Shown here one piece after another: positions 18,601-21,600 of a stretch of DNA of 64,000 nucleotides; within the stretch, counting starts at the first letter, position 1; each line of letters opens with the position of its first letter. The stretch lies in NCBI RefSeq assembly GCF_988242995.1, contig NZ_OZ547043.1; one strand, given 5' to 3'. Made by a program: the position numbers.

Positions 18601-21600
18601 CTCCAGCGCCTTAGAAGAACGCTGACGCGCGCGCGCTTCCAGCATATGGCCGAGATTGATCAGACCGATAATCATCGCGCTGGCTTCGTAATAAAGATGT
18701 CGCGCTTCCATCGGGAACCACTGCGGCCACAGGTTGACGCTCATCGAATAGAGCCACGCCACGCCAGTACCTAGCGCCACCAGCGTATCCATCGTCGCTG
18801 CACCGTTCAGCAGGCTTTTCCATGCGCTGCGGTAAAAATGCCCGCCGGCGAAAACCATTACCGCCAGGGTTATCAGGCCGATAACCAACCACAAGCTGCG
18901 GTTGTCAGCGGTGACCATCATGTTATCGCCGATCATCCCCCAGACCATCACCGGGATACCCACCGCCAGTGCGACAATTGCCTGCCAGCGGAAGCGCTTC
19001 ATCGTAGCGACTGCGGTTTCCTGCTGGCGCTCGCGGCGTTTAGCGTCATCTTCAATCGCTTCCGCGCCGTAGCCCGCTTTTTCCACTGCCTGCACTAAAT
19101 CTTGTGGGGAGGCACTGCCCATCACCAGCGCAGTACGCTCCGCCAGGTTTACCCGTGCCTGAGTGACGCCCGGTACGCTTTGCAACGCATTTTGTACGCG
19201 GGTGACACAGCTGGCGCAGCTCATGCCGCTCAGCAGCAACTGCTGGCTGTCATCGTCATCGGCGGTCGCTGCCGGAAGCGCCTCAGAAACCGCTGTCAGT
19301 GCTTCCGACGGGATTGATGACTCCGCCAGCGGTTTAGCCTTTGGGTGGCTTACAGATGCGTCATAACCCGCTTGTTTGATGGTTTCGATCAGCTGTTCTG
19401 CACTGGCAGTCCCGGTAACGTGCGCTTCAGTGACAGACACATCCGCCTGCTCAACATCCGGGCGCTGTTCGAGACTTTCTTTCACGCGTTTAACGCAGTG
19501 ACCGCAGGACAGGCCGTCCAGGGTCAGGTCGATAGTTTGTGACATAAAACACTCCTTTTAAGACAGTTTTGACTGGCTGTGATAAAGGTTAAACCTTCCA
19601 GCAAGGGGAAGGTCAAGAAATTAATAAACCAGGCGGGTAAAAGTCCGTAAAGATTAAAAAATCGGCTCGATTTGCATCAGGATTAGACATTTATCTCTTT
19701 GTTTTCCTGTAGTTAAGTTGCGGGTGCTAAGTTAAATCAGGATGCCTGAAAATCGGCACCGGGGTGAGGAATTACCTCCCGCATCTATAAAAAGGAGTTA
19801 ACAAAAGATGTTAGATGCAAACAAATTACAGCAGGCAGTGGATCAGGCTTACACCCAATTTCACTCACTTAACGGCGGACAAAATGCCGACTACATTCCC
19901 TTTCTGGCGAATGTACCTGGTCAACTGGCAGCAGTGGCTATTGTGACCTGCGATGGCAACATCTATCGCGCGGGTGAGAGTGATTACCGCTTTGCGCTGG
20001 AATCCATCTCGAAAGTCTGTACGTTAGCCCTTGCGTTAGAAGATGTCGGCCCGCAGGCGGTACAGGACAAAGTTGGCGCTGACCCGACCGGATTGCCCTT
20101 TAACTCAGTTATCGCCTTAGAGTTGCATGGCGGCAAACCGCTGTCGCCACTGGTAAATGCTGGCGCTATTGCCACCACCAGCCTGATTAACGCTGAAAAT
20201 GCCGAACAACGCTGGCAGCGAATTTTACATATCCAACAACAACTGGCTGGTGAGCAGGTAGCGCTCTCTGACGAAGTAAACCAGTCGGAACAAACAACCA
20301 ACTTCCATAACCGGGCCATTGCCTGGCTGCTGTACTCCGCCGGATATCTCTATTGTGATGCAATGGAAGCCTGTGACGTGTACACCCGTCAGTGCTCCAC
20401 GCTCATCAATACTGTTGAACTAGCAACGCTTGGCGCGACGCTGGCGGCGGGTGGTGTGAATCCGCTGACGCATAAACGCGTTCTTCAGGCCGACAACGTG
20501 CCGTACATTCTGGCTGAAATGATGATGGAAGGGCTGTATGGTCGCTCCGGTGACTGGGCGTATCGCGTTGGTTTACCGGGCAAAAGCGGTGTAGGTGGCG
20601 GTATTCTGGCGGTCGTCCCTGGCGTGATGGGAATTGCCGCGTTCTCACCACCGCTGGACGAAGAAGGCAACAGTGTTCGCGGTCAAAAAATGGTGGCATC
20701 GGTCGCTAAGCAACTCGGCTATAACGTGTTTAAGGGCTGATCATGATGAACACGGAAGGTAATAACGATAACAAACCCCTCGGTCTATGGAACGTCGTTT
20801 CCATCGGCATTGGGGCAATGGTGGGGGCGGGGATCTTCGCGCTGCTGGGGCAGGCTGCGTTGCTAATGGAAGCCTCGACCTGGGTCGCCTTTGCATTTGG
20901 CGGTATTGTGGCGATGTTTTCCGGTTATGCCTATGCGCGCCTGGGGGCGAGCTATCCCAGCAATGGCGGTATTATCGACTTCTTTCGTCGCGGATTAGGC
21001 AACGGCGTCTTTTCGCTGGCGCTCTCGTTACTGTACCTGTTGACGCTGGCGGTGAGCATCGCCATGGTCGCCCGTGCTTTTGGCGCTTATGCCGTGCAGT
21101 TTTTGCATGAAGGCAGTCAGGAGGAGCACCTTATTTTGCTCTACGCGTTGGGAATCATTGCGGTGATGACGCTTTTCAACTCCTTAAGCAACCATGCGGT
21201 AGGGCGGCTGGAAGTGATCCTCGTCGGCATTAAAATGATGATCCTGTTATTGCTGATTATTGCCGGTGTCTGGTCGCTGCAACCGGCGCATATTTCCGTC
21301 TCTGCGCCCCCCAGCTCCGGTGCGTTCTTCTCCTGTATTGGGATAACCTTCCTTGCCTATGCGGGCTTTGGCATGATGGCGAACGCAGCGGATAAAGTGA
21401 AAGATCCGCAGGTCATTATGCCACGGGCGTTTCTGGTGGCGATTGGCGTTACCACGTTGCTTTATATCTCGCTGGCGCTGGTTTTGCTTAGCGATGTATC
21501 GGCATTAGAGTTAGAAAAATATGCCGATACCGCCGTAGCGCAGGCAGCTTCTCCGCTGCTCGGGCATGTGGGTTATGTGATCGTCGTCATCGGCGCTTTA

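Follow-up and report, generated by a model that had tools for sequence, protein, structure and literature searches.

The copA promoter and CueR operator of K-12 are unchanged in a strain that retains O-island 28, an island that most Escherichia coli appear to have lost by deletion upstream of cueR

Here we describe the copA-glsA intergenic region of a 64,000-nucleotide stretch of NCBI RefSeq contig NZ_OZ547043.1 (assembly GCF_988242995.1), hereafter the window, together with the circuit through which the MerR-family regulator CueR controls the copper exporter gene copA. Very probably, what occupies this region is the standard copA promoter of E. coli together with the CueR operator, and the 28-kb separation between operator and regulator gene exists because the strain retains O-island 28 between ybaT and cueR, an island that K-12 and most other E. 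coli genomes lost through one deletion. The promoter and operator are themselves textbook elements, already known and unchanged from the laboratory strain. The features that carry this argument are:

17041-19545, minus strand: copA, Cu(I)-exporting P-type ATPase (NF007952 equivalog, 1749.9 bits against a cutoff of 1316)
19546-19807: the 262-bp copA-glsA intergenic region, between copA (minus strand) and glsA (plus strand)
19586-19616, minus strand: copA promoter by direct reading, with -35 element TTGACC (19616-19611), 19-nt spacer (19610-19592) and -10 element TAACCT (19591-19586)
19593-19613: CueR operator dyad ACCTTCC-N7-GGAAGGT, N7 being agcaagg, within the spacer region
19808-20740 and 20743-22035, plus strand: glsA and ybaT, a glutaminase/permease operon that lies between operator and cueR in all Escherichia
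22064-47844, plus strand: the segment absent from K-12, corresponding to O-island 28 (BLAST of the window against K-12, NCBIfam and RefSeq annotation)
47845-47939, plus strand: the last 95 nt of hlyD28, which carry the cueR Shine-Dalgarno sequence AGGAGG and persist in K-12 as a frameshifted remnant
47940-48347, plus strand: cueR, Cu(I)-responsive MerR-family regulator (NF007590 equivalog, 308 bits against a cutoff of 244)

An earlier reading of the window made without database searches (the sequence-only reading) had claimed a MerR-type copA promoter with a 19-bp spacer and a dyad, and these elements stand as claimed: in the minus-strand promoter sequence (cTTGACCttccccttgctggaaggttTAACCTttatca), TTGACC and TAACCT are separated by 19 nt and the arms of the dyad are complementary at 7/7 positions. 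The locus thereby combines the attributes of MerR-family promoters, namely a 19-20 bp spacer, a dyad inside that spacer and a cognate regulator with intact cysteines. Compared to MG1655, the copA-glsA spacer has one extra base, located in the copA 5' untranslated region (UTR) upstream of the Shine-Dalgarno sequence, and the promoter and operator are 100% identical. A 501-bp segment spanning the promoter is present at 95% identity or more in 5401 of 5426 complete E. coli genomes, and a search of the copA-glsA spacer with Rfam at gathering thresholds returned nothing.

The operator also appears to be the only one of its kind in the window. The core dyad CCTTCC-N7-GGAAGG (12 bases) has a single exact match in the 64 kb, at copA, and allowing up to two mismatches yields five matches against 1.73 expected, those outside copA all carrying two mismatches and being at chance level. 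With an extended CueR pattern built from the copA and K-12 cueO sites, up to three mismatches allowed and 100 shuffles as a control, copA was the sole match in the window and none was obtained in the shuffles. A generic scan for MerR-type promoters (-35 element, 19-20 nt, TAnnnT, dyad of at least 6/7) gave three matches against 3.4 expected, with copA alone reaching 7/7. The sequence-only reading had raised the prospect of further CueR-type dyads within the island; none was found there beyond chance, and the matches at 37703 and 43101 lie inside coding sequence.

Base for base, the promoter, the 19-bp spacer and the dyad are those of the K-12 PcopA/CueR system, reportedly described by Outten in 2000 and Stoyanov in 2001. 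K-12 differs in being without the extra 5' UTR base, in having cueR 2.6 kb from copA and in carrying an hlyD remnant rather than an intact gene before cueR. PcueO, the second CueR-dependent promoter of K-12, shares with copA the TTGACC element, the 19-bp spacer and the CCTTCC-N7-GGAAGG arms but has a different central 7 nt, a -10 element of TATGCT and an unlinked location.

CueR itself is identical to its K-12 counterpart at 134 of 135 residues, D103N being the sole change, and the copper-binding residues C112 and C120 are kept. Cryo-electron microscopy indicates that CueR-type promoters are activated by a metal-dependent distortion of DNA that acts on their over-long 19-bp spacer (PMC8169799). 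By the mechanism established for the identical K-12 sequence, a CueR dimer would occupy the dyad inside the spacer, binding of Cu(I), Ag(I) or Au(I) at C112/C120 would cause it to bend and undertwist the DNA, and this distortion would enable sigma-70 RNA polymerase to use the copA -35 and -10 elements. The presumption in the sequence-only reading that the circuit is intact is borne out insofar as promoter, operator and regulator can be compared: the copper circuit looks intact, with activation by Cu, Ag and Au predicted from identity with the characterized K-12 site. Approximately 200 nt into copA, on the minus strand at 19340-19346, is the motif CCCAAAG, near the joined CopA(Z) soluble chaperone product annotated in K-12; this motif is probably a programmed-frameshift slippery site.

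The start codons of copA and cueR are 28,394 nt apart in the window versus 2,613 nt in K-12. The sequence-only reading thus placed cueR correctly, at about 28 kb and beyond a type I secretion system island, while its value of ~2.4 kb for K-12 was slightly low. In a BLAST comparison of the window with K-12, the left-hand homology extends as far as 22063, 28 nt beyond the stop codon of ybaT, and restarts at 47845, 95 nt before the cueR ATG. The intervening block is O-island 28 (OI-28), a published and already known type I secretion and giant adhesin system, with the following parts:

22079-22092: RstA box TAATTCAAATTACC, an exact match to the published box, at -294 to -281 of tolC28
22373-23728, plus strand: tolC28, TolC family (TIGR01844, 414 bits, above cutoff)
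23831-44605, plus strand: giant adhesin siiEA/rtx28, 6924 amino acids in one intact reading frame with internal repeats (RefSeq name siiEA, 'BapA-related adhesin')
44609-46771, plus strand: LssB-type ABC exporter (TIGR03375, 836 bits, above cutoff)
46768-47943, plus strand: hlyD28, HlyD-family adaptor, of which the 5' part falls within the block (TIGR01843, 327.7 bits, above cutoff, aligned to the final profile position, 422/422)

A TolC channel, an LssB-type ABC exporter, an HlyD adaptor and a giant repetitive substrate are therefore encoded together, as is characteristic of type I secretion. In enterohaemorrhagic E. coli (EHEC) O157:H7, OI-28 (tolC28, rtxA28/B28, hlyB28 and hlyD28) is an RstA-activated, Ca2+-responsive adhesion system whose five genes are all co-regulated by RstA; the paper describing it discusses acquisition by horizontal transfer, suggests a recent gain by pathogens, and nowhere mentions cueR, copA or ybaT (PMC12758282). 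Gene order, position, the RstA box and its distance from tolC28 are the same in O157:H7 and in the window. The adhesin differs, being a single 6924-residue frame in the window, split into two genes in EDL933 (PMC12758282), and both frameshifted and interrupted by an internal stop in strain 042. In E. whittamii the adhesin appears much shorter, with ~6.6 kb between its N- and C-terminal matches.

The sequence that K-12 has in place of the island indicates the direction of change. Its 124-nt ybaT-cueR spacer consists of 28 nt of left flank, 2 nt, and 94 nt of an hlyD 3' end. In the window, the stretch beginning at 47845 encodes the HlyD C-terminus and matches the family profile through its last position, and the 94 nt of K-12 are this same hlyD stretch with a 1-nt deletion in an A-run that breaks the frame. 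In an island-minus genome, the Prokaryotic Genome Annotation Pipeline (PGAP) annotates the stretch as a frameshifted pseudogene that is missing its N-terminus and overlaps the start of cueR. Because it contains the last 94 nt of an hlyD-family gene with a frameshift, the K-12 spacer is a deletion scar, and K-12 does not present the intact empty site, free of island sequence, that precedes an insertion. This K-12-type junction occurs in 4458 of the 5426 complete E. coli genomes (82%) and the island in ~960; with one junction common to all 4458, a single deletion allele therefore accounts for essentially all island-minus E. coli. Judging from the junction, K-12 and 82% of E. coli genomes are deletion derivatives of an island-bearing ancestor that lost 25.8 kb.

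The hallmarks that an insertion relative to K-12 would carry, flanking repeats and an integrase or transposase, were not found, tRNAs being left unscanned. Neither direct repeats nor an attachment site could be found at the island boundaries, where the longest common sequence is 5 nt, and annotation assigns no recombinase among the five island genes, four of which are NCBIfam-typed and the fifth of which is the RefSeq adhesin. The lack of boundary repeats and of an annotated recombinase fits an illegitimate deletion rather than the excision of a mobile element. In the history we favour, O-island 28 would already have been at this position in the Escherichia ancestor, and one 25.8-kb deletion would have left K-12 and most E. 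coli with 94 nt of the hlyD-family gene before cueR. The scar thus implies that OI-28 is ancestral at this site and was lost in most E. coli, not recently gained by pathogens as has been suggested (PMC12758282).

Other members of the genus were examined by comparing cueR neighbourhoods across the 80 GTDB species that matched best, each represented by one genome. The hlyD-cueR arrangement occurs in E. whittamii and Escherichia sp. E1V33, and the cryptic-clade strain SCPM-O-B-8794 carries the island in decayed pieces (tolC, adhesin, ABC and hlyD fragments). In Escherichia sp. MOD1-EC7003 the junction is of the K-12 type, frameshift included, and glsA has a separate ~0.7-kb internal deletion (window 19909-20604; 8452/8445 in its locus, L005). 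The remnant in E. albertii is differently bounded (window 22052/47885) and more decayed, and the 24 nt preceding the cueR ATG (ACAGGAGGCGTTGCGCGAACGATG) are unchanged. Because the island, its pieces or its remnants are spread across Escherichia species in this manner, its presence at this site dates from early in the history of the genus, and more than one loss has followed.

Retention or loss of the island also bears on how cueR itself may be transcribed. The TGA stop codon of hlyD28 overlaps the cueR start codon (ATGA), and the cueR Shine-Dalgarno sequence is inside hlyD28. At the other boundary lies one further feature:

22047-22079, plus strand: terminator-like hairpin after ybaT (GCGCAGTACAG/CTGTACTGCGC; hairpin at 22047-22069) followed by a T-rich tail

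The predicted RNA fold of this hairpin has an energy of -16.1 kcal/mol (z = -4.0), compared to -7.6 kcal/mol (z = +1.3) for the K-12 equivalent, and the K-12 junction at 22063 removes the 3' arm and the T-tract. Loss of this terminator fits the predicted ybaS-ybaT-ybbI operon of K-12, in which cueR would come last (Permina 2006, PMC1526738), beyond which our literature search found nothing on a glsA-ybaT-cueR transcript. The ybaST genes are copper-induced, reportedly not directly via CueR (PMC10903455). A scan of the plus strand near cueR (the hlyD 3' end, the K-12 scar and 43.5-48.4 kb) found no consensus sigma-70 promoter for cueR, which is a weak negative from a crude test; in most loci of other genera in which copA and cueR are split, TATAAT or TACAAT is clearly recognizable ~35-40 nt before cueR. 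We also considered that two independent deletions, of the K-12 and E. albertii types, had both destroyed the ybaT terminator, and set this aside as E. albertii keeps a weaker GCGCAG...CTGCGC hairpin.

Because all five island genes respond together to RstA, cueR is possibly transcribed along with them. Where the island is present, cueR, overlapping the hlyD28 stop codon, would probably ride on the RstA-activated island transcript, and in K-12 the deletion that took the 3' arm and T-tract of the ybaT terminator would probably have joined cueR to the glsA-ybaT transcript. We put forward only tentatively the broader proposal that presence or absence of the island rewires cueR, making it the last cistron of an RstA- and Ca2+-activated adhesin operon in O157:H7, O145:H28, 042 and the present strain, and the last gene of an acid- and copper-induced glsA-ybaT operon in K-12-type strains. 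If this were so, CueR dosage would follow different signals in these two sets of strains, and the OI-28 and hlyD28 deletion mutants already published might be polar on cueR. The ribosome-binding region of cueR is supplied by the island's last gene, and the context upstream of cueR differs between the two states, which calls for caution when deleting OI-28 or hlyD28. With the cueR ribosome-binding site and start codon situated inside hlyD28, the published deletion mutants (PMC12758282) could have altered cueR expression.

Several considerations weigh against the account given so far. Induction of copA in this strain is predicted from its sequence. A weak cueR promoter may exist inside the hlyD 3' end, the scan having been a crude consensus test. 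The 24-nt stretch that precedes the cueR ATG does not vary, even in E. albertii, and its conservation may stem from a role as promoter or UTR as well as from the ribosome-binding site. The GC content of the island (0.59-0.63) shows that it was acquired horizontally at some point, so on a longer timescale it is correct to call it inserted. Lastly, cueR differs from its K-12 counterpart by 17 synonymous changes and one non-synonymous change, and its synonymous divergence (dS) of 0.207 would also be compatible with recombinational re-import of the island-bearing locus from a divergent lineage instead of vertical inheritance.

This last consideration supplies the alternative that survives best, namely that the island arrangement dates back to the ancestor of the genus and that, after an early species-wide deletion, some E. 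coli lineages regained it by homologous recombination from divergent Escherichia. The five flanking genes (copA, glsA, ybaT, qmcA and ybaP) have dS values of 0.06-0.13, so that the cueR value is roughly double the flank mean; differences fall at 17 of 94 synonymous sites in cueR against 142 of 1576 in the pooled flanks, and 47845-48347 is 94.6% identical to K-12 against 97-98% in the flanks. The K-12-type junction in a cryptic-clade genome shows in addition that alleles cross lineage boundaries. However, deep divergence is equally expected if both forms coexisted for a long time with reduced recombination at the indel. The divergence of cueR thus suggests either an ancient separation of the locus into forms with and without the island or recombinational import, and we regard re-import after a species-wide deletion as possible though rather doubtful.

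Far less credible is the scenario in which the lineage of this strain began with a K-12-like ybaT-cueR arrangement and gained the island within it, displacing cueR from the operator. K-12 and 82% of E. coli genomes indeed lack the island, which has atypical GC content and has been discussed as a horizontal acquisition (PMC12758282), but insertion does not account for the frameshifted 94 nt of the island's last gene that K-12 keeps directly before cueR, for an HlyD frame that crosses this stretch to a genuine family C-terminus, for other Escherichia species with the island or other remnants at the same site, or for boundaries without repeats; we consider it very improbable. The description of the island as inserted in the sequence-only reading consequently fails relative to K-12, given the frameshifted hlyD28 remnant, and holds in comparison with other Enterobacteriaceae, where a distance of ~108 bp between copA and cueR is common.

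That wider comparison covers the 67 species in which both copA and cueR fall within the fetched locus. A tight divergent copA/cueR pair is present in 37 of them, with a gap of at most 141 nt and typically ~108 nt, and the operator stops 12-14 nt short of the start codon of cueR (...GGAAGGTCAAGGGGGAAAnGTG). Tight pairs of this MerR style, found in Citrobacter, Enterobacter, Klebsiella, Kluyvera and Salmonella, have the operator, -35 element and gene orientation of Escherichia, which differs in having extra DNA from just after the -35 element to the cueR ATG; accordingly, Escherichia homology to the tight pair stops just after the -35 element (window ~19618) and restarts at the cueR ATG. The Salmonella copA-cueR pair has been described as being without ybaS and ybaT (Permina 2006, PMC1526738). 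In the remaining 30 species the pair is split by 0.2-8.5 kb, with the operator within 100 nt of copA in 29 and also beside cueR in only two, and across the 80 Enterobacteriaceae loci a CueR dyad with 0-1 mismatch lies beside copA in nearly all. No type I secretion genes, glsA or ybaT were matched at this site in the 75 non-Escherichia loci. Being absent from the site in related genera and of atypical GC content, the island is an insertion relative to other Enterobacteriaceae, and on this deep timescale both glsA-ybaT and the island are insertions. The copA/cueR pair has therefore been split many times by different inserted genes across Enterobacteriaceae, with the operator almost always remaining with copA.

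The inserts differ from one lineage to another, with a haem/iron uptake cluster in the Citrobacter freundii group, a hexapeptide transferase in one Citrobacter, and a VasI-like gene and a GmrSD-type gene in Enterobacter mori. The inserts of Citrobacter sp. R56 (L012, 8029-8100 and 9930-10000) and E. mori (L040, 5078-5150 and 9930-10000) start with one and the same stretch (tttaaattgctgattgaaagggatttttaaaatcagcgt), and a ~20-bp duplication taken from the right half of the CueR box (CCATCAAGGGGAAGGTCAAG) flanks both; they may represent an element that inserts at the operator. Two other split loci, from an Enterobacteriaceae metagenome-assembled genome (L059, 4062 and 6241) and Pseudescherichia vulneris (L062, 6343, 7512 and 9969), have full CueR boxes both beside copA and 12-13 nt before cueR. 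In P. vulneris a third CueR box lies between the two, which suggests additional CueR-controlled genes.

Tight pairs (L009, L011, L017, L043 and L063) also have an extra ~28 nt in the copA leader, ~20-50 nt from the start codon, that contains the inverted repeat GGTCA-N5-TGACC or variants of it. The element is absent from Escherichia and most split loci, and the distance from CueR box to copA ATG is 74-77 nt in tight pairs versus 38-52 nt in most split loci. This inverted repeat may be related to expression of cueR itself. A strict rule by which it occurs only when cueR is adjacent was rejected, the correlation being strong but imperfect, with exceptions.

Given these arrangements, the distance to cueR, whether 2.6 or 28 kb, is probably immaterial for control of copA: CueR is diffusible and acts in trans, so copA induction should be unaffected by the distance. 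The ability of CueR to act on remote sites follows from cueO, which is unlinked yet CueR-regulated; in K-12 (NC_000913.3) cueO lies at 137,083 and cueR at 513,993, and the two promoters have the same dyad arms. CueR was likewise functional from a plasmid in the classic PcopA-lacZ assay (PMC5329002). We accordingly give almost no credence to the idea that distance matters in cis, with a low-copy regulator made far away finding its site more slowly and inducing copA more weakly or later, an idea that draws on the general argument that regulator genes tend to lie near their target sites, and that is countered by regulation of cueO through the same dyad, by the plasmid assay and by the 30 of 67 species that split the pair with the operator kept at copA.

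The window differs from K-12 at two further places around these genes. Between cueR and ybbJ, whose stop codons abut in K-12, it has an extra 2.6-kb block (48348-50965) encoding a 67-residue membrane protein, a 140-residue lipoprotein, a 338-residue YadA-family trimeric autotransporter and a 120-residue hypothetical protein. This block varies independently of the island, some genomes having the block without hlyD and others hlyD without the block. At 16684-17045, 361 bp stand in for the 728 bp that ybaQ and its neighbouring REP cluster occupy in K-12; no ybaQ is annotated in the ybaP-copA interval of strain 042 either. Elsewhere in the window, Rfam matches at gathering level comprise:

1995-2059: DnaX frameshift element
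9982-10059 and 50830-50907: two copies of naRNA4, which is REP-derived
15736-15819: sroB (ChiX in the K-12 annotation), between ybaK and ybaP

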